DNA of 64,000 bases from a virus (Duplodnaviria; Heunggongvirae; Uroviricota; Caudoviricetes), in the IMG/VR virus record IMGVR_UViG_2913167280_000003, positions 27,299 to 91,298 of that record; one strand, written 5' to 3'. Positions 6,387 to 37,783 of this stretch are shown here, one piece after another. Each line of letters begins with the position of its first letter. The first letter of the stretch is position 1. The translations under genes and the position numbers were made by a program. The notes beneath the pieces were generated by a model. That model saw only the letters and a list, made by a program, of their open reading frames with translations, did not search any database and was not told the origin of the DNA.

Positions 6387-7004
<618 letters not shown>

Positions 7005-7106
7005 TCCATTGAGTGGGAATATTGCCGTCTGGGAGTAATATGGTATCATTAAGTTAGAGTAGGTAGTGTAGATGGAATGAGGAGTATCATATGGTTATCA
7101 CACAAT

Positions 7107-7136
7107 CAGGTTGCTTTGAGTCAGGTTGTTTTGAGT
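7107..7136. repeat. tandem 15-bp direct repeat (CAGGTTGCTTTGAGT x2, one mismatch)
   Basis: Seen directly; sits just upstream of a terminator hairpin in the divergent intergenic region. Confidence 0.7.
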
Positions 7137-7147
7137 AAAACAATAAA

Positions 7148-7172
7148 ACGCCCTTTAATGGGCGTATTTTTT
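7148..7172 (+). terminator. intrinsic terminator-like hairpin (ACGCCC-TTTAAT-GGGCGT followed by T-run)
   Basis: 6-bp GC-rich stem followed by ATTTTTT; 10 bp upstream of the 7183 ATG. Confidence 0.55.
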
Positions 7173-7182
7173 AGGATTTAAA

Positions 7183-8076
7183 ATGCATTCTTTACAGAAA
7201 TACATAAAACATAAATATACTCACTTAACTTTTTTTCTCTCATTACTTTTTTTCATGATATTTGAATCGCGAGAAGATCTTATCAAGAAAATATTATCTT
7301 TTTCTCTCAATGAAGTTTTACCATTCTTAATGTTTGCGTTCTTCTCCGTATTTATCAGCATAACGATAAAGGAAAAGATAGCAAAGAAATACCCAGAAAC
7401 AAACGATGGGATTACCATTATAGCTTTAATCTTTGGTGTAACACTATATAGTGTGTTTATCTTATATTATTTATATGGTGATGTATACCAATCCACAATT
7501 GCTTTACTTATAAGTTCTGTGCTACTTGGTTCTGGGTGGTGGGTTCAGGCTACTGTGAGTAAAGTAGCCGCAAGAAAATCACACACCTTAAATACACTAA
7601 TGAATCAAAGAAACAGTGAATTATTTCACAAGAAAGTTTCATCGGTAGCGAATACGTTCGGGCTTAGAAAAACCATAAATGAAATTATTGCCAAACAAAG
7701 ACTTGTCCCAAATGATAAAGATTTAAAAAATAAAAAGGTCCATGATGAATACATATCAGCAGGTAATGATATGTTCTTCGTTCTTAATTATTATGAATTT
7801 ATCTGTTCAGGAATAATAAATGGGGACTTTGATGAAGATTCAATGAGAGAATGTCTTGGACAAATTGTTCCAGGTCTCGAAGTTAGAGCATTTCATTTTA
7901 TAAGAATTGCAAGAGAAATTTCAGGGAGTAGCTGCTTCTGTAATTTTGTCGCTGTTTCAGACAAATGGTCTACTAATGGAGGCTCTCTTATTCTCAGACA
8001 CGAGAAAGGAGAACCTGTGATTAATAACCTGACCCATTGCTTTGAAGAAACAGACTGTTTTAACATAACTTCTTAA
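7183..8076 (+). CDS. AT-rich accessory membrane protein, about 4 predicted TM helices plus ~170-aa C-terminal domain (297 aa)
   Basis: Hydrophobic segments LTFFLSLLFFMIF, LPFLMFAFFSVFISITI, ITIIALIFGVTLYSVFILYYLYG, IALLISSVLLGSGWW; AT-rich composition unlike flanking backbone; hairpins on both sides. Confidence 0.6.
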   Translation: MHSLQKYIKHKYTHLTFFLSLLFFMIFESREDLIKKILSFSLNEVLPFLMFAFFSVFISITIKEKIAKKYPETNDGITIIALIFGVTLYSVFILYYLYGDVYQSTIALLISSVLLGSGWWVQATVSKVAARKSHTLNTLMNQRNSELFHKKVSSVANTFGLRKTINEIIAKQRLVPNDKDLKNKKVHDEYISAGNDMFFVLNYYEFICSGIINGDFDEDSMRECLGQIVPGLEVRAFHFIRIAREISGSSCFCNFVAVSDKWSTNGGSLILRHEKGEPVINNLTHCFEETDCFNITS

Positions 8077-8082
8077 TATTTT

Positions 8083-8109
8083 GTAACCCATAATCGCTTT
8101 ATGGGTTAC
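8083..8109 (+). terminator. hairpin downstream of the 297-aa gene (GTAACCCA...TGGGTTAC)
   Basis: 8-bp perfect stem with 11-nt loop; no strong T-run, so terminator function uncertain. Confidence 0.35.
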
Positions 8110-8130
8110 GTTAAATTTGCAATAAAAAAA

Positions 8131-8311
8131 TCAATCGCCGGGCTTTAAGCATCCATCGTTTTTGGCTTGTTGATATAACTTACTTAGCCCAGAAAGAGGG
8201 AATGTGGCAATTTTTTCATTATCAACATAAGCATCAATCACATTAGCATTTGAATCTGCTGCATCCTGCCAAAAGGCATACCACCAAGAATCTCCAACCA
8301 TTGACCCAAGA
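8131..8311 (-). pseudogene. remnant of a paralog of the 154-aa gene (C-terminal ~57 codons only)
   Basis: Minus-strand translation ...DSWWYAFWQDAADSNANVIDAYVDNEKIATFPLSGLSKLYQQAKNDGCLKPGD* aligns with C-terminus of ORF 9673-10137 (...REWYSFWKSASATKEKNMDVYIG...SSIYKEAKNDGCLK); no intact N-terminus. Confidence 0.45.
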
Positions 8312-8400
8312 GGGATTTGACGTCTTCGAGTAATTGTCGTTGTGTCATTGACACCTCGTAGAATCTGGTGTGTTAACCGATTCTACGAGTTATCATTTGT
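8312..8400. repeat. ~88-bp direct repeat copy 2, including duplicated start codon and 12 codons ([12 protein letters not shown]) of the 188-aa gene
   Basis: Near-identical to 6917-7004; the duplicated start at 8346 is followed by a stop after about 36 codons. Confidence 0.85.
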
Positions 8401-8501
8401 TACCGGTCAGTCTACACATTTCAGATGCTGCGTTAAAAAACTCAAGAGCTTCAAGTAGCATATCGTCATCAACACCCAGCCCGAAGATGCTGAGATAAAA
8501 T

Positions 8502-9686
8502 TCAAGCTTTAAGAGGCTTTGTGTATGTTCGTGTAATCCATCCAGTAATAAACTCGTCCCCTGATTTAACCTGCACGAAAAGCCATTGGCGATCTTTTTT
8601 ATCTAAAATAGCAACAATTGTATTTTTACCAATGCACTCTATCACTTCACTATTTAAAGAAGGACTGACATGTAATCTTACATTATCACCTGTTATAGCT
8701 CTAAAATTATTAAGATCCTCCCACTGAATATCTTTATTTTCTTGTGTTAGCTTTTGCTTAGATATTGGCTTATCCTCATTTAGGGATAGAATATATGATT
8801 CCATCCCGTAAATTTGCGATAATGTTTTTTCTTTCGCATAATCAGTTATAGCGCCAAGAAATACTTGACACAAAATCCACAGAAGAAAAGTCTGAACAGG
8901 AGAAGGAAGCGCCTTAAATGAATCAATAAACGTCGAACTAGATTTATTTAATCCTTTGTCTTGAGCATCACTTTCAGTGTGTGATGTTTCAATGGCACCT
9001 TCGATATAAGCCTGTGCAATTGTTGAAAGACCTTGCTCCATTATTTGATGAAATGAAGCCTTTTGTGCTTGAGTATATTGATTTAATAATTCTTTTATTT
9101 CATTGTTTAAATCTATCTTGTGAGTTACATTTTTCCGCAATTCATTAAGCATTGCTTGCATGTTATTCAAGCCAGCTTGCTTATTAAGCATCTCGAACTG
9201 GTTTCGTAACGGCATAGCTATTTCGGCCTGTTTCCTTAGCATTTGAATGTGTTTATTTGCATCATGAGTGGAAAAAGCCTGAGCCTGTTTCTGTAAAATA
9301 TCAATATGTTTACGAAACTCGTTGCCTATTCCTGCCAGTTTCGGCATATTCTCAAACTGTTTTCGAATAGAATCACTAACTATGGATTGCAAATTAAATC
9401 TTGCTATTTGTTCTTGAGCTAGCTGTCCTATTCTTAACTGTTTTTGCAAGTTTGCCATATGTTCTTTATACGATGGAATGATTGCGTTTTTTTGCAGTTC
9501 CGCCAACTGTCTAACCAAATTATTAGAAGCATAATCTGATTTTAATAAATCACTTACCGATTTATATTCGGGCATTTTGATTTTATTTAAATCATCACGC
9601 CAAGTAATATTTGAATCTTTATTATAAAGATCGCTTACTGAGCCAAGAGCAAGTTTTTTAATGTCCTTCACTTTATTCACCGTCAT
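8502..9686 (-). CDS. accessory protein with helical repeat region and C-terminal SH3-like domain (394 aa)
   Basis: Repeated helical motifs (LQKQAQAF, MLRKQAEIA, MLNKQAGL) and C-terminal segment NVRLHVSPSLNSEVIECIGKNTIVAILDKKDRQWLFVQVKSGDEFITGWITRTY resembling bacterial SH3 domains; AT-rich. Confidence 0.6.
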   Translation of the reverse strand: MTVNKVKDIKKLALGSVSDLYNKDSNITWRDDLNKIKMPEYKSVSDLLKSDYASNNLVRQLAELQKNAIIPSYKEHMANLQKQLRIGQLAQEQIARFNLQSIVSDSIRKQFENMPKLAGIGNEFRKHIDILQKQAQAFSTHDANKHIQMLRKQAEIAMPLRNQFEMLNKQAGLNNMQAMLNELRKNVTHKIDLNNEIKELLNQYTQAQKASFHQIMEQGLSTIAQAYIEGAIETSHTESDAQDKGLNKSSSTFIDSFKALPSPVQTFLLWILCQVFLGAITDYAKEKTLSQIYGMESYILSLNEDKPISKQKLTQENKDIQWEDLNNFRAITGDNVRLHVSPSLNSEVIECIGKNTIVAILDKKDRQWLFVQVKSGDEFITGWITRTYTKPLKA

Positions 9687-10137
9687 CTTGCTTTAAACAC
9701 CCATCATTTTTAGCTTCCTTGTAAATACTTGAAATGCCATCAAGAGAGAATGATGTAATTCGACGCGATCCGATATATACATCCATGTTTTTTTCTTTTG
9801 TGGCTGACGCTGACTTCCAAAAAGAATACCATTCCCTACGATTAGGAGAAGTGTTTTGCGTGCCAATATTAAAACTATCCGAACCAACAATTAAAGTAAT
9901 TACATCTGCTTTACGAGAAATTGTGTCGCGTGTAGAAAAATCGGCATTCTCTTTTCCTCCGCTTACATACAAATTTCTTCCAGCGATATGGTCTTCAGAA
10001 CCATCCCTTGCACCAGCATCACAAGAAAAATTAATTGTATAGCCATCCTCATGACATGCTCCGGCAAAGCGCCTCATTTGACGCTCCTGTTGACCATCTT
10101 GTCTTAACTGGAATTTAAATGCTTGTAGTCGTTTCAT
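9673..10137 (-). CDS. accessory protein of unknown function (154 aa), first gene of two-gene operon
   Basis: ORF overlapping downstream gene by 14 bp; a degenerate partial copy exists at 8131-8311. Confidence 0.55.
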   Translation of the reverse strand: MKRLQAFKFQLRQDGQQERQMRRFAGACHEDGYTINFSCDAGARDGSEDHIAGRNLYVSGGKENADFSTRDTISRKADVITLIVGSDSFNIGTQNTSPNRREWYSFWKSASATKEKNMDVYIGSRRITSFSLDGISSIYKEAKNDGCLKQDDGE

Positions 10138-10299
10138 CCCACTATTTTAAACAAAAACAGTTAGGTGGAGAACCGCGCCTTATATCCCCACCCTGAAGGA
10201 CGGGGTTTTACGGCGCACCGGATAACTCATTTAGGGTACATATTTTCGCCTTTAAAAAAAAGAGGTTATTAGATCCATTTGTGTATTTATTAAACAGAT

Positions 10300-12878: not shown

Positions 12879-13724
12879 ATGCTAGCTAAAGTCACTTTCC
12901 TGAGCTGTATAACGATGAGCGATTTTACTTTTTCTGGCTATGAATTGGCCTGCTTTGTAACACACTCCGGTCTATCCCGTAGCGCCGGGCATATCCTGTC
13001 GCAATGTGCAAATCTCGCGGCAACAACCAGTGAATACTTCATTCATAAGCCTCACCGCCTGATCGCGGCAGAAACAGGTTATAGCCAATCAACCGTCGTT
13101 CGTGCATTCCGTGAAGCTGTAAACAAAGGAATCCTGTCTGTAGAGATTGTTATCGGCGATCACCGTGAACGCCGTGCTAACCTGTACCGGTTTACACCAT
13201 CCTTTTTGGCCTTCGCACAACAAGCTAAAAACGCGCTGACTGAAAGCAAATTAAAGATCTCTTCAGCCGCAACCAAGGTTAAAGCTGTTCTCGCTAAGAC
13301 ATTGGCTTTATTTGATTTTTTATCCACACCCCCATGTCAAAATGATACCCCCTCCCCCTGTCAGGATGACGTGGCAATAAAGAATAAGAAGTCACAAGTT
13401 AAAAAAACAAAAAGATCAGTTTCCGGCGGTGCCGGAACGACCAGACTCAAAAAATTGACTTCATGGATCGCTGAGGCAAAAGCAAAGGCTGACAATCTGC
13501 GGTTATCCAAAAAACGCGCTCAAAAACATGAGTTCAAGCAGAAAGTAGAGGCGGCTGCGCGGAAATATGCTTACCTGAAGAACAAGCGTTCGCCTGATAT
13601 TGGCGGGATATCAAACTTCGATAACCTACCGCATTGCATGACGGTAAACGAAGCTCTTAATGCGGTTTTAGCCAAAAATAAAGATAACGAACAATGGGGT
13701 ATACCGGCGGGATTCAGAGGGTGA
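12879..13724 (+). CDS. repL: RepL lytic-replicon initiator (281 aa); oriL expected inside
   Basis: 281-aa ORF directly after kilA, same size and order as P1 kilA-repL. Confidence 0.75.
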   Translation: MLAKVTFLSCITMSDFTFSGYELACFVTHSGLSRSAGHILSQCANLAATTSEYFIHKPHRLIAAETGYSQSTVVRAFREAVNKGILSVEIVIGDHRERRANLYRFTPSFLAFAQQAKNALTESKLKISSAATKVKAVLAKTLALFDFLSTPPCQNDTPSPCQDDVAIKNKKSQVKKTKRSVSGGAGTTRLKKLTSWIAEAKAKADNLRLSKKRAQKHEFKQKVEAAARKYAYLKNKRSPDIGGISNFDNLPHCMTVNEALNAVLAKNKDNEQWGIPAGFRG

Positions 13725-13761
13725 TAGATTGCTCTAATCTGGAGTCACCTGGCGTTTTCAG

Positions 13762-14019
13762 TTGAGATCGGAGATGCAATCTGATTTTTTACAGTTAGCG
13801 ATCGCTTTTACAGGATATGTTTGCATTGGCTTCTGTGTATACATGATCAGCCGAAAAATGCTTGTCGATATCGACCGCAAAGAACGAGCAGAGGAAATCT
13901 TAGTATGGATTTTCTTTGGCGCGGTCTGGCCATTAGGGATCATGTTTGCTGCAACGTTTCTTCTGATGTGGATATTCACCATTCCAGGTGATTTATATAG
14001 AAAAAAAGCCAGACATTGA
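13762..14019 (+). CDS. possible small membrane protein (85 aa, 2 hydrophobic segments)
   Basis: ORF with two TM-like stretches (FLQLAIAFTGYVCIGFCVYMI, ILVWIFFGAVWPLGIMFAATFLLMWIF); an antisense ORF overlaps, so coding strand uncertain. Confidence 0.3.
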   Translation: MRSEMQSDFLQLAIAFTGYVCIGFCVYMISRKMLVDIDRKERAEEILVWIFFGAVWPLGIMFAATFLLMWIFTIPGDLYRKKARH

Positions 14020-14201
14020 TACAATCGCTGCGGGTGCTTGAGGCTATCTGCTTCAGGCACTACCCGACAAGCAGATAGAAGAAAGCCCCAGATAACATTA
14101 CGCGTCCTGCAAGACGCTTAACATTAATCTGAGGCCATATCTATGCTTAGCATACGTAGATTAGCCCTCTCCCCTTTTTAGGAGCAAGGAATTTTTTACT
14201 G

Positions 14202-14834
14202 CTATGCCGCCTTTCCAATTATGGATTCAGCGACCAGAACAACCCCATGCTTACTTCTATCTGGGTGTTCACTCCATATCTCGGATTCAGGAATACTTAC
14301 CCCGTCATAGCAAACACGTTCGCCGTCAAACGGGTAATACTGAGCGGCATCGGTGTCGAGGATAAACACTTTTAGCTCGGAAGAGCGACGGGCGATGTGT
14401 TGCCAAAGAGCTTTTCCACCTTCGTATTGCTCATTATCACTGAGCAAAACAACACCAGCTTTTGAGGCTACGGTTTCGTAAACAAAAGTAGCTAAACCGA
14501 CATCCCGGACGGTTCCATCAACCACGATACCTTCAATCTGGGCAACATCGCTATCCTCCCAGAACTTCCTTACAAGTACGCCTTCAAGCTGCGGGCGACG
14601 TTGAAGTTCAAGAGTAGCGACAACCTTATGGCGCATATCACCATCGATAACAGAAGGCGCAGCCTCTATTACAGCTGCAAATGGGGTTTTGGAATCCCAT
14701 ATAACCTGGTAAAGCACACCCTGGATGGTAACTCCGTCCAGGATCGAAAATCGACGAGCGACAGTACCCGGGGAGTACGACATTGGAATCACAGCCATTT
14801 TAGAGTCCCCCTTTAACAGTACAGGCACAAACAT
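14202..14834 (-). CDS. hypothetical protein (210 aa; possibly starts at internal Met MAVIPMSY)
   Basis: ORF in track; no motif recognised. Confidence 0.45.
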   Translation of the reverse strand: MFVPVLLKGDSKMAVIPMSYSPGTVARRFSILDGVTIQGVLYQVIWDSKTPFAAVIEAAPSVIDGDMRHKVVATLELQRRPQLEGVLVRKFWEDSDVAQIEGIVVDGTVRDVGLATFVYETVASKAGVVLLSDNEQYEGGKALWQHIARRSSELKVFILDTDAAQYYPFDGERVCYDGVSIPESEIWSEHPDRSKHGVVLVAESIIGKAA

Positions 14835-14921
14835 CTACCTCAATAATTGTAGTTTATTAGAACATTAATAATCTAACATAAAACTCAAGACAATGTTATC
14901 GATGCATTCTTATATAAAATA

Positions 14922-14950
14922 GTTATAAAAAAAGCTCCCGAAGGAGCTTT
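14922..14950 (-). terminator. intrinsic terminator (AGCTCC-loop-GGAGCT with flanking A/T runs, potentially bidirectional)
   Basis: Minus-strand reading gives hairpin followed by TTTTTTT directly after stop of gene 14970-15479. Confidence 0.65.
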
Positions 14951-20306: not shown

Positions 20307-20339
20307 GGCACTTGTGTGAATCCCTTTTCGGAAGAGATT

Positions 20340-30698: not shown

Positions 30699-30741
30699 GA
30701 TGGTGTAGCTCAGCGGTTAGAGCGTCTGCCTTGTAAGCAGT
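30699..30741 (+). tRNA. 5' portion of a tRNA-Thr(UGU)-like gene (acceptor 5' strand, D-arm, anticodon arm)
   Basis: GATGGTG-TA-GCTC-AGCGGTTA-GAGC-G-TCTGC-CTTGTAA-GCAG: canonical D-arm and anticodon loop CTTGTAA; sequence then diverges from tRNA. Confidence 0.4.
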
Positions 30742-30750
30742 GGGATACTG

Positions 30751-31170
30751 ATGAAAATTTGTAGCAAATGCAAAGCACTAAAACCTGCTTCCGATTTCCA
30801 TAAAAACAAAGGAAAGAGCGATGGCCTGCAAAATATTTGCAAGGTGTGCGCCAAGGAAAGAGATGCTCTGAGTTATGCAAGCAATGAATCAAGGCGCCGG
30901 CTTATAAAGTTAACAAGAACGAGAAAAACAAGCTCAAACCGTCAGTTTTTATCTCGTTATAAACGCTTCATCGGGTGCCAAAATTGTGGAGAAAAAGAAC
31001 CTATAGTTCTGGACCTCCACCATGATAACCCTGGCGGCAAAGAAGGCGATCCTTCTAACCTATGTAGTCGATCTCGAAAGCGACTTAAGGAAGAAGTAAG
31101 GAAGTGCATTGTCCTCTGTGCGAATTGCCACAGAAAAGTCCACGCAGGTTTATTGGATATAAAGAAATAG
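30751..31170 (+). CDS. HNH endonuclease (139 aa) with N-terminal Cys-rich zinc-finger-like region
   Basis: HNH motif (LDLHHDNP...NLCSRSRKRL...CANCHRKVH) and CxxC pairs (CSKC, CKVC, CQNCG). Confidence 0.7.
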   Translation: MKICSKCKALKPASDFHKNKGKSDGLQNICKVCAKERDALSYASNESRRRLIKLTRTRKTSSNRQFLSRYKRFIGCQNCGEKEPIVLDLHHDNPGGKEGDPSNLCSRSRKRLKEEVRKCIVLCANCHRKVHAGLLDIKK

Positions 31171-31202
31171 CTACGGCGGTTCAATTCCATCAACCATCAC
31201 CA
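31171..31202 (+). tRNA. putative 3' portion of the same tRNA (T-arm, acceptor 3' strand, CCA)
   Basis: GGCGG-TTCAATT-CCATC T-arm (4/5 pairs), AACCATC pairs 6/7 with GATGGTG at 30699, discriminator A, encoded CCA. Confidence 0.3.
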
Positions 31203-31376
31203 TATACCAATGTGATGATTCTGCCGGTACGACTCTGACATCTATTCCTCGAAACGGAGTGCACAACAGATAAGAGCATTTGTAGAGTTCGACTCTCTAC
31301 CGTGGGCTTTTTCCCGCGATGTGCGCCATAGATGCTCTTTCCGTTGTGGCGAATGCGGCTGAGCGCACGCGGGGAG

Positions 31377-31790
31377 ATGAAAAAGAAACATCTGTTGATT
31401 GCTGGTGACGTGCTGTTTGCCCTGGTTGCGCTCAGCTTGTGCGACCGTGACGGCCCGGCACCGGTAATCGTCGCTCAGCCATCCGCGCCGGGAGGGGGCC
31501 ACTATTACGATAACAGCGGGGTCTTCAGCGACTTGCTGATGGGACACCTGATGAGCGGTGGTGGCTATGGACACAGCAGCAATATCAACATCACGCATCA
31601 TACGACCGTCATTAAAAACTACCATCCGGCGCCGCGCTACAACGCCACCAGCGACCAAACGCTATTATGGCTCCAGCTCGTTCGCGCGCCGCTCAACCGT
31701 TACGTCGCCTCCGATGCGTTATATCCGTCCGAGCTAGAGCCGCCACTGATGGTTATGCCCCTCCATCGTGGGGCTGTTTATTTGCCGTAA
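31377..31790 (+). CDS. putative lipoprotein (137 aa; Plp-like)
   Basis: RBS GGGGAG, start MKKKHLLIAGDVLFALVALSLC with lipobox L-S-L-C; Gly/His-rich mature part. Confidence 0.6.
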   Translation: MKKKHLLIAGDVLFALVALSLCDRDGPAPVIVAQPSAPGGGHYYDNSGVFSDLLMGHLMSGGGYGHSSNINITHHTTVIKNYHPAPRYNATSDQTLLWLQLVRAPLNRYVASDALYPSELEPPLMVMPLHRGAVYLP

Positions 31791-32463
31791 CACTCTTCTG
31801 GTTAGGGCTAATTGAGCCAACATCATTTTGCGTAGTGTTAACCTTTTCCCCTGGCACGGTTATATCTACCATTTTATAAAGTCCTTTTCTCAGACCTGTT
31901 ACGGCATCACCGTTAAAGAGTCCCCATATTGCAAACAAAAGGCCTATTGAGAAGGCTGTGGCAAAAAGTTTTGGTACACCAGAAAAAAGAAATTTTAATA
32001 TGGCAATCCCATAGACTTGGGCACATTCCCAAAACCCCACGGGTTTCTTTATTTGCTTGCTGTATTTTTCTGCACCTTTAACCAGCTGCTTTATAGCATT
32101 TTTGTTTGCCTCATCTTTCTCTTTCTGGAGGGCTTTGATTTGGTTTTGATAAATATTCTCTTGCTGCTCAAAAATTGTTTCTAACCTTGTCTGCAACTCG
32201 TTGTTGACGCCAGAAACGTATCCATCTAAAATTTCCTGTGCGCTTCTTTTAAATACTTGAAGCTGCCTCGGTGACTTGAGGCATTGATCGTGGTAGGCCG
32301 CAAGCTCAGCCTCAATCTCGTATTCTTTTTTACCGGCCGCGCGAGCGTTACGAGCTATTTCGTCCTTAAAACCTTTATAAACCGCATACGAAAGAAGCTG
32401 CTCAATATTATTTGGATCTTTTACCAGCTCAGTAAAAATCCATTTCTTTGTTTGCTGAGTCAT
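31753..32463 (-). CDS. AT-rich accessory membrane protein (236 aa; soluble helical N-domain, 2 TM near C-terminus)
   Basis: Helical charged N-terminal 150 aa, then hydrophobic segments (VYGIAILKFLFSGVP, FATAFSIGLLFAIWGLF); AT-rich. Confidence 0.5.
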   Translation of the reverse strand: MTQQTKKWIFTELVKDPNNIEQLLSYAVYKGFKDEIARNARAAGKKEYEIEAELAAYHDQCLKSPRQLQVFKRSAQEILDGYVSGVNNELQTRLETIFEQQENIYQNQIKALQKEKDEANKNAIKQLVKGAEKYSKQIKKPVGFWECAQVYGIAILKFLFSGVPKLFATAFSIGLLFAIWGLFNGDAVTGLRKGLYKMVDITVPGEKVNTTQNDVGSISPNQKSVTANKQPHDGGA

Positions 32464-32516
32464 GTTTCACCACAATAAAAAAGCCACTTCAAAGGAGCTT
32501 GTAAATATCACGTTGG

Positions 32517-32849
32517 TTACGCTTTTTTATTTTTACGAACCTGATTAAACGATTCTTGAATATATTCCCGCCCGCTGCTCTGTGATAGGACGGACATTGC
32601 TAATTGACGAGACAGGCTGGAAGCCTTTGCATCCCGTGCTGATGCAGCTGCTACTTTACGGACAGTTTGGCTATCGCCTTTACGACTAACTTCATTTTTT
32701 TTGCCTGCAATCACGCCTGCAACGGCAGCCTTTACAAAGGCCGTTTTGTTAGTAACAATTTTTTCCGCAGCGACCGTCGCCACGGCATTCTTCGAAATTT
32801 TACGAATTTCTTCCGGGCTGAGGGCTGGCATACGACGAACTGTGGTCAT
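32517..32849 (-). CDS. small basic Ala-rich protein (110 aa)
   Basis: ORF in track; Lys/Ala-rich; no motif recognised. Confidence 0.4.
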   Translation of the reverse strand: MTTVRRMPALSPEEIRKISKNAVATVAAEKIVTNKTAFVKAAVAGVIAGKKNEVSRKGDSQTVRKVAAASARDAKASSLSRQLAMSVLSQSSGREYIQESFNQVRKNKKA

Positions 32850-32966
32850 TTTTCGCTCCTCTTTACTTCTCCTCAGTCTAACATTTGCGAAAATATTTGT
32901 ATATTTTTTAGCGCGCTTTATATGGGATTGTGGGAGGCGCTTTCAGGGCCAAAAATCATTATCGAA

Positions 32967-36089
<3,123 letters not shown>

Positions 36090-37316: not shown

Positions 37317-37694
37317 TTACGCAATGGATAATGTCCCTATTACCTGGCCGTCATATTGGAAATGGCGAATCATTTCGCGGACCCAGGTGGCAGGTGGGAG
37401 TTTTAATTTTTTGCCAACAGTCATGCCCTGAGATTCATCCTCAAGCCCGGCGGCGAGCGTCACTACCCAGCGTAGCTCTGCTATGCCCCACATACGGTAA
37501 GCCAGCAAATCCGGGCGGTATTGCTCATCGGGAAGAACGTAATAAATCGTCAGATTCTTGTCGTTCGATTCACACATAAGCATCACCTCTTTGCGCAGCT
37601 CTGCCCTGAGTATTGGATCGGCTATGTTGCGGTCGTCATACCGTGACAGAGGATATTGCTGGGTGCTTTGGGTTGTTGTGATTGATGTAGCCAT
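37317..37694 (-). CDS. first gene of minus-strand late operon (125 aa)
   Basis: ORF preceded by leader motif shared with the operon starting at 6953. Confidence 0.5.
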   Translation of the reverse strand: MATSITTTQSTQQYPLSRYDDRNIADPILRAELRKEVMLMCESNDKNLTIYYVLPDEQYRPDLLAYRMWGIAELRWVVTLAAGLEDESQGMTVGKKLKLPPATWVREMIRHFQYDGQVIGTLSIA

Positions 37695-37766
37695 AGTCAG
37701 CCTGCCAGAAATAGATGATGGTGATTCTACTGCTAGTCATTTGTTGAATGTTTAACTCAATAAAAG

Positions 37767-37783
37767 AAAATTATTAGTGCAAT
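37767..37783 (-). promoter_or_regulatory. C1 operator-like site, diverged (AAAATTATTAGTGCAAT on + strand)
   Basis: 15/17 match to reverse complement of consensus; in divergent intergenic region 37695-37840. Confidence 0.5.

Follow-up and report, generated by a model that had tools for sequence, protein, structure and literature searches.

Two sites that share the motif GATTCTAC-N5-GTCATTTGT in a 64-kb window of viral DNA (the window being the whole stretch of 64,000 nucleotides that was analysed) are almost certainly the core elements of two late promoters of P1: LPsit, which serves the pmgC/sit tail operon, and LP26, which serves the gene 26 baseplate/tail operon. The element is already known and annotated in P1, and its exact recovery here is a rediscovery that matters little. 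At LPsit, however, the promoter is built into a conserved hairpin, and folding and comparison suggest that the arrangement could serve as a translational insulator, a P1 counterpart of the device at the T4 genes e, soc, 49 and I-TevI; we regard this as a serious possibility that stops a little short of probable. No description of the LPsit inverted repeat was found in the literature searched (the name LPsit led to one relevant preprint, which holds no mechanistic detail), and the repeat may be new.

By its sequence, the window belongs to a P1-like phage-plasmid about 95-97% identical to P1. Its collinearity with P1 (AF234172.1) runs from P1 position 39594 to the record end and on to 2651, with 92-96% identity in most aligned blocks. 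The P1 counterpart is replaced at window positions 7186-10221, 13739-14927, 30725-33104 and 43156-54625, and the par region has only 65% identity to P1. The segments that lack a P1 counterpart, or reach 65% identity in the case of the par region, comprise the last three of these intervals together with 21528-22459 and the sequence beyond 63433. Equivalents of the P1 promoters LPhot and LPmat were not found in the window by weight-matrix scan and P1 alignment, which is attributed to these large segments without P1 counterpart or with par-type divergence. The gene for the late promoter activator, lpa, is present (Table 1). A C1 operator-like site with three mismatches to the operator consensus lies upstream of it at 55889-55905, and an operator Olpa is annotated in the P1 record. 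The matches confirm a late regulatory circuit, from C1 through lpa to the Lpa boxes, that appears intact in this P1-like element.

A pattern search for GATTCTACNNNNNGTCATTTGT recovered the motif exactly at 6984-7005 and 37723-37744 of the + strand, about 30 nt before the ATGs of pmgC (6953) and gene 26 (37694); an earlier note on this DNA had described it as shared by these two sites and as lying upstream of the first start codons of two minus-strand operons, and both statements hold. The minus-strand form of the motif is ACAAATGAC-N5-GTAGAATC. A further copy with one mismatch, overlooked in the earlier reading, was found at 8379-8400, and one with three mismatches at 20336-20357 corresponds to LP23. 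Four matches were therefore obtained at up to three mismatches against 0.24 expected, a number that none of 100 shuffles reached. When the frequency in coding regions was checked, as the earlier note had proposed, the half-motifs GTAGAATC and ACAAATGAC were confined to these promoter sites throughout the 64 kb, with no scatter in coding sequence.

The P1 record AF234172.1 (the same as NC_005856) annotates the late promoter LPsit at 46608-46626, upstream of pmgC (-10, 46608-46613; -22 region, 46618-46626), and the late promoter LP26 at 78485-78503, with a -22 box common to the divergent LPpmgL. The window motifs align exactly onto these features, which settles the suggestion of a late-promoter or activator recognition element in its favour. 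Their common minus-strand form is AAC-AAATGAC(T/A)A-N4-TAGAAT, i.e., a 9-bp box near -22, a 4-bp spacer and a sigma-70-type -10; the hexamer TAGAAT, of the TAnnnT type, is present on the minus strand at 6985-6990, 8380-8385 and 37724-37729. The sites occupy the same positions as in P1 (before pmgC, and between gene 26 and pmgL) and have the same architecture, the LP26 box is identical, and the same activator gene, lpa, is found in the genome. In contrast, the LPsit box differs from that of P1 at one base (AAATGACAA here, AAATGACTA in P1), and in the window LPsit recurs 1.4 kb upstream with a truncated pmgC, and other genes take the place of the P1 sim genes. A sigma-70 consensus scan of 6800-8700 detected no minus-strand promoter that combines the -10 of LPsit or of its duplicate with a -35 hexamer placed 16-18 bp away; inspected by eye, the six bases that lie 17 bp before the LPsit -10 are CTCAAT. 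The experimental status of LPsit and LP26 appears to rest on the GenBank annotation and secondary citations.

In P1, Lpa (gp10) is produced once C1 repression of lpa is lifted, and DNA-bound Lpa recruits E. coli RNA polymerase via the host protein SspA, by which the morphogenesis, lysis and packaging operons are turned on late in infection. Lpa is a sequence-specific DNA-binding activator that acts with RNA polymerase-associated E. coli SspA (PMC1891329), and the late morphogenesis, lysis and packaging genes of P1 need it (PMC8198154). At LPsit and LP26, Lpa would bind the 9-bp box near -22, next to a sigma-70-type -10 and with no -35 element, and we infer that both promoters depend on Lpa in the window genome.

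Table 1. Coordinates of promoter elements, repeats and genes in the window
Feature	Position	Strand	Remarks
pmgC, first gene of the sit (tail) late operon	6387-6953	-	97.9% identical to P1 PmgC (tblastn)
3' arm of LPsit repeat (core GATTCTACGAG, 6960-6970)	6954-6970	-	covers pmgC Shine-Dalgarno GAGG, 6959-6962
5' arm of LPsit repeat (core CTCGTAGAATC, 6984-6994: spacer, -10 and 1 nt)	6984-7000	-	overlaps box, spacer and -10
LPsit	6985-7006	-	weight matrix >=17
-10 hexamer TAGAAT of LPsit	6985-6990	-	homologous to P1 minus_10_signal 46608-46613
-22 box (Lpa recognition element) of LPsit, AAATGACAA	6995-7003	-	homologous to P1 46618-46626
Duplicate of LPsit, hairpin and first 14 pmgC codons	8308-8400	-	box AAATGATAA 8390-8398; -10 8380-8385
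LPsit duplicate	8380-8401	-	weight matrix >=17
LP23, AACAAGTGACTTTCAATAAAAT, canonical box	20337-20358	-	weight matrix >=17; identical to P1 predicted late promoter LP23, 58825-58846
Late-promoter-like site AACAAGTGACTGGTGATAACCT inside gene 7 (35358-36086)	36019-36040	-	matrix score 21
Gene 26 (baseplate), first gene of the 26-25-7-24-6-5 late operon	37317-37694	-	
LP26	37724-37745	-	weight matrix >=17
-10 hexamer TAGAAT of LP26	37724-37729	-	homologous to P1 78485-78490
-22 box AAATGACTA of LP26, common to divergent LPpmgL (+)	37734-37742	-	homologous to P1 78495-78503
-10 of divergent LPpmgL	37747-37752	+	AATGTT here, AATATT in P1; P1 annotation 78508-78513
C1 repressor operator O26, adjoining LP26 and LPpmgL	37767-37783	-	P1 annotation; operator consensus with 2 mismatches
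lpa, late promoter activator gene	55976-56428	+	148/150 residues identical to P1 Lpa (99%)
LPpac, GACATGTGACTTTCGTTACCCT	56457-56478	+	weight matrix >=17; identical to P1 LPpac

The eleven late promoters annotated in P1 (LPmat, LPpro, LPlyz, LPdar, LPs, LPsit, LP23, LP26, LPpmgL, LPhot and LPpac) were extracted and gave the consensus (a/g)AC-AAGTGACTT-N4-TAnnnT, with AAGTnACTT, a 9-bp palindrome, as the box. When the window was scanned with a weight matrix derived from these P1 sites, six matches reached the cut-off score of >=17 against 0.017 expected (Table 1). Scores were 19.6 for LPsit (AAATGACAA), 17.7 for its duplicate (AAATGATAA) and 25.4 for LP26 (AAATGACTA), all at the correct spacing. 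The three boxes match the palindrome at 5-7 of 9 positions, that of LPsit at only 6 of 9, and the same promoters in P1 are likewise imperfect. The Lpa-box motif offers a clean means of annotating late operons in P1-like phage-plasmids.

Within the P1 set, LPsit and LP26 are consensus members that carry AAATGACTA and GTAGAATC. They alone do so, which explains why the earlier note saw them as a pair and passed over LP23 and LPpac. The promoters of the general P1 consensus (LPs/Ps, LPdar, LPlyz, LPpro, LPmat, LP23 and LPpac) agree with LPsit and LP26 in spacing, in the TGAC core and in having a TAnnnT-type -10, whereas the latter two are set apart by the half-sites AAAT and ACTA, with one mismatch in each half of the palindrome, and by the near-consensus -10 TAGAAT. 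The comparison with the P1 late consensus that had been proposed thus places both sites in the same promoter class, but the exact motif is limited to these two, the others carrying the related AAGTGACTT-N4-TAnnnT. The sub-variant itself probably carries no meaning. Upstream of gene 26 in Cronobacter phage JK004, whose gp26 is 85% identical, the promoter reads AACAAGTGACTCagcaTACAAT, with the canonical box AAGTGACT, and different lineages have LPsit boxes of the form A(A/C/T)ATGAC(A/T)A; the additional identity that LPsit and LP26 show in P1-type genomes is hence not a conserved one.

The site inside gene 7 lies 46 nt into the gene, scores comparably to the annotated LPdar and is identical in P1 (76780-76801), though unannotated there. 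Genes 24, 6 and 5 could have an internal late promoter here; alternatively, the site could be an Lpa box without function. Two weaker late-promoter-like matches, both conserved in P1, are on the minus strand: one at 25308-25329 (P1 63962-63983; score 12.8), some 20 nt ahead of a ppfA-like gene whose start reads AGGAGG-ATG, and one at 12879-12900 (P1 50726-50747; score 14.2), antisense at the start of repL.

Two other accounts of the shared motif fare poorly. The notion of a chance resemblance between sites with no common function can draw only on the small number of copies; 17 specified bases are matched exactly twice in 64 kb, the matches at up to three mismatches far exceed expectation, and both sites fall on annotated promoters. 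The match statistics and the P1 annotation refute it, and its probability is negligible. The earlier note had also placed the motif in the transcribed leader and had offered a conserved leader hairpin as an explanation. A hairpin or leader element inside both late mRNAs, acting on stability, processing or translation, would be consistent with the distance of about 30 nt from the start codons and with the inverted repeat that contains one copy. Yet the motif is the promoter itself (-22 box, spacer and -10) and, since it includes the -10 hexamer, lies upstream of the late RNA start. In addition, LP26 has no inverted repeat, its effect on ribosome-binding-site opening in read-through RNA is no different from that of shuffles in the window (p = 0.29), and an Rfam scan of the LPsit and LP26 sites returned no family. 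The leader hairpin fails for the late transcript, as its 5' arm (spacer and -10) is upstream of any LPsit start, and an element of this kind in the late mRNAs is very unlikely.

The 11-bp inverted repeat that the earlier note had reported at the first site is present, formed by CTCGTAGAATC (6984-6994) and GATTCTACGAG (6960-6970), and it extends to 17-nt arms in which 15 of 17 positions are complementary. In the mRNA sense the region reads TGACAACTCGTAGAATC-GGTTAACAAACCA-GATTCTACGAGGTTTCA-ATG, and the 3' arm stops one base before the pmgC ATG (6953). Because the 5' arm consists of sequence from the box, spacer and -10, it is absent from RNA initiated at LPsit; the hairpin can form only in RNA begun further upstream, since the 5' arm precedes the LPsit start site. 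Folding agreed with this geometry: the long, upstream-initiated RNA folded the hairpin, with a minimum free energy of -24.1 kcal/mol (z = -2.56), and in a short RNA starting 7 nt after the LPsit -10 the ribosome-binding site was unpaired. The cost of opening positions -15 to +2 was calculated for both RNAs, with shuffled upstream sequence as the control (Table 2). In the window the long RNA required 18.6 kcal/mol and the late RNA 6.1, no shuffle reached the observed value, and the same pattern was obtained for P1, the duplicate, JK004 and a Salmonella plasmid.

Table 2. Energy (kcal/mol) required to open positions -15 to +2 at LPsit
LPsit copy	Long RNA	Late RNA	Shuffled upstream sequence	p
Window	18.6	6.1	6.5 +/- 1.3	<= 0.01
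P1	17.6	6.1	6.4 +/- 1.25	<= 0.01
Window duplicate	15.9	9.1	9.2 +/- 1.1	<= 0.01
JK004	22.0	4.9	8.3 +/- 2.3	<= 0.01
Salmonella plasmid	16.2	7.5	8.4 +/- 1.8	<= 0.01

By eye, LPdar, LP23 and LPpac had looked similar to LPsit before the opening-energy test was applied. In that test LPdar was marginal (p = 0.08) and the other nine P1 late promoters, LP26 among them, were no different from shuffles. Pairing of a -10-proximal arm with the Shine-Dalgarno sequence was consequently rejected as a general property of P1 late promoters, LPsit being the only clear case. Two further candidate roles for the repeat were also discarded: a mirror-image + strand late promoter built on the TAGAAT of the 3' arm has no box at the right spacing and no matrix match, and a terminator is contradicted by JK004, where the hairpin has no U tract.

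Conservation of the hairpin was assessed in P1-type leaders from 80 IMG/VR loci and four genome contigs, which yielded 19 leader variants. The 22 core stem positions were invariant among these variants and 4 of the 13 loop positions varied; the 80 IMG/VR loci are 97-99% identical and accordingly display loop variation only. A more distant form was found in JK004 (PmgC 75% identical) and five Salmonella plasmids, ACA(C/T)ATGACAA-CTCG-TAAAAT-CGG-(C/T)TGAAGAT-CCG-ATTTTA-CGAG-GTTGGC-ATG, which makes a perfect 13-bp stem with a loop unrelated to the P1 type. There, the change of the -10 from TAGAAT to TAAAAT is matched in the 3' arm by a change from ATTCTA to ATTTTA, a compensatory replacement of G-C by A-U (alignment pair 18-40: G-C in 10 rows, A-U in 2). 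Besides this single double change, JK004 and the Salmonella plasmids show gains at the stem end, and one arm spacing is 1 nt shorter. In the alignment, pair 23-35 is unpaired, G-C or U-A, and pair 24-34 tolerates G-U. Across the alignment 94.9% of cells were paired, against 29-46% when the partner was slid by 1-3 columns. The compensatory evidence is suggestive rather than conclusive and amounts to one independent event; PLSDB contains only eight P1-like plasmids whose PmgC falls in the range of 60-90% identity. Homologues from more distant genomes were uninformative on covariation: in Serratia and Pantoea (58-61% identical) pmgC directly adjoins the preceding gene or overlaps it and lacks a promoter, and phage D6 (52%) has a terminator ahead of pmgC and shows no P1-type box at that place or upstream of gene 26.

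These observations suggest, as an addition to the promoter reading, that the LPsit hairpin in upstream-initiated RNA sequesters the pmgC Shine-Dalgarno sequence and that late RNA bypasses it, a proposal to which we give nearly even weight. Transcripts from the variable, co-oriented sim-type region would fold the hairpin and leave pmgC untranslated, while Lpa-driven late transcripts would begin inside the loop, lack the 5' arm and allow pmgC to be translated. The proposal draws on the placement of the arms, the 5' arm being made of the spacer and -10 that LPsit RNA excludes and the 3' arm lying over GAGG and ending 1 nt before the AUG; on the difference in opening cost between long and short RNA; and on the stem itself, invariant in the P1-type variants and kept in JK004 and the Salmonella plasmids despite the unrelated loop. 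A co-oriented upstream ORF was present in all of the IMG/VR and genome loci, and in about half of them it stops 6-28 nt short of the box and no terminator intervenes, which makes read-through structurally expected at these loci. Against this, only a single independent compensatory event was seen, each arm is partly constrained by the -10 or the Shine-Dalgarno sequence in any case, and the effect is not general for P1 late promoters. Both P1 and the window also have a terminator upstream of LPsit (7148-7165 in the window); with this terminator and a divergent neighbouring gene, read-through in the window may be small. The main alternative is that the repeat is a DNA-level operator, at which a dimeric phage or host protein bound to the 11-bp arms would block the -10. 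The perfect 11-bp palindrome overlaps the LPsit -10, and the compensatory change in JK004 preserves DNA symmetry as well as RNA pairing. However, no P1 regulator of such specificity is annotated, the C1 operator consensus is absent at LPsit, and the arm sequence occurs elsewhere in the window only as part of the LP26 -10. The arm spacing differs by 1 bp between lineages and the spacer sequence is unrelated, the G-C to G-U changes tolerated at the stem end fit RNA better than DNA, and an operator does not explain why the 3' arm sits exactly on the Shine-Dalgarno sequence. An operator is considered improbable.

The hairpin that hides the ribosome-binding site has a precedent in T4, where the genes e (lysozyme), soc, 49 and I-TevI each have a late promoter embedded in a hairpin of this type (PMC3014915). 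In the gene e-type device, as at LPsit, the late promoter overlaps the DNA of the 5' arm, the Shine-Dalgarno sequence is within the 3' arm, and the hairpin can be folded only in upstream-initiated RNAs. The two differ in that the T4 promoter is a gp55/gp33 promoter and LPsit uses Lpa and sigma-70, and in that the LPsit case is known from sequence and folding. The upstream RNAs of T4 come from early promoters, whereas those at LPsit would originate from a temperate phage's prophage or early genes. If the proposal is correct, a temperate phage uses a T4-like promoter-in-hairpin device to silence structural genes on read-through RNA from an accessory region, and the insulator could account for module exchange that breaks exactly at the -22 box.

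The surroundings of LPsit are variable. In at least five unrelated upstream contexts, among the IMG/VR and genome loci, homology begins exactly at the LPsit -22 box, about 50 nt upstream of pmgC. In the window the sim genes of P1 are replaced by a DUF4760 gene and an SH3-domain gene (8502-9686); in many P1-like plasmids an SH3-domain gene is instead directly upstream of pmgC. A 93-nt direct repeat, 95% identical between its copies at 6913-7005 and 8308-8400, brackets the DUF4760 gene (7183-8076, + strand), and its upstream copy, which carries the duplicate LPsit, points antisense into that gene and heads a dead-end ORF of 36 codons (8238-8348, minus strand). The repeat looks like a recombination scar of module exchange at the promoter. 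Given the replacement of sim, the direct repeat and the differing upstream genes, LPsit is taken to be the fixed edge of a recombination-prone accessory region.

Comparable arrangements were noticed at two other promoters. In P1, at LPdar/lydA (31183-31230, outside the window), CCTCCT just after the -10 can pair with the lydA Shine-Dalgarno sequence AGGAGG, and opening would cost 14.5 kcal/mol in the long RNA and 8.7 in the late RNA (p = 0.08); LPdar is a possible second case, at a lysis gene, in which folding predicts a ribosome-binding site hidden on read-through RNA. The LP26 leader of JK004 (positions 447-503 of the locus analysed) has a hairpin of its own, tCCCGC-N11-GCGGGa, with the 5' arm between the -10 and the expected start and the 3' arm abutting the start codon. 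The calculated energy for opening is 13.1 kcal/mol for the long RNA and 3.9 for the late RNA (p = 0.04), and the hairpin echoes the LPsit arrangement at a different promoter.
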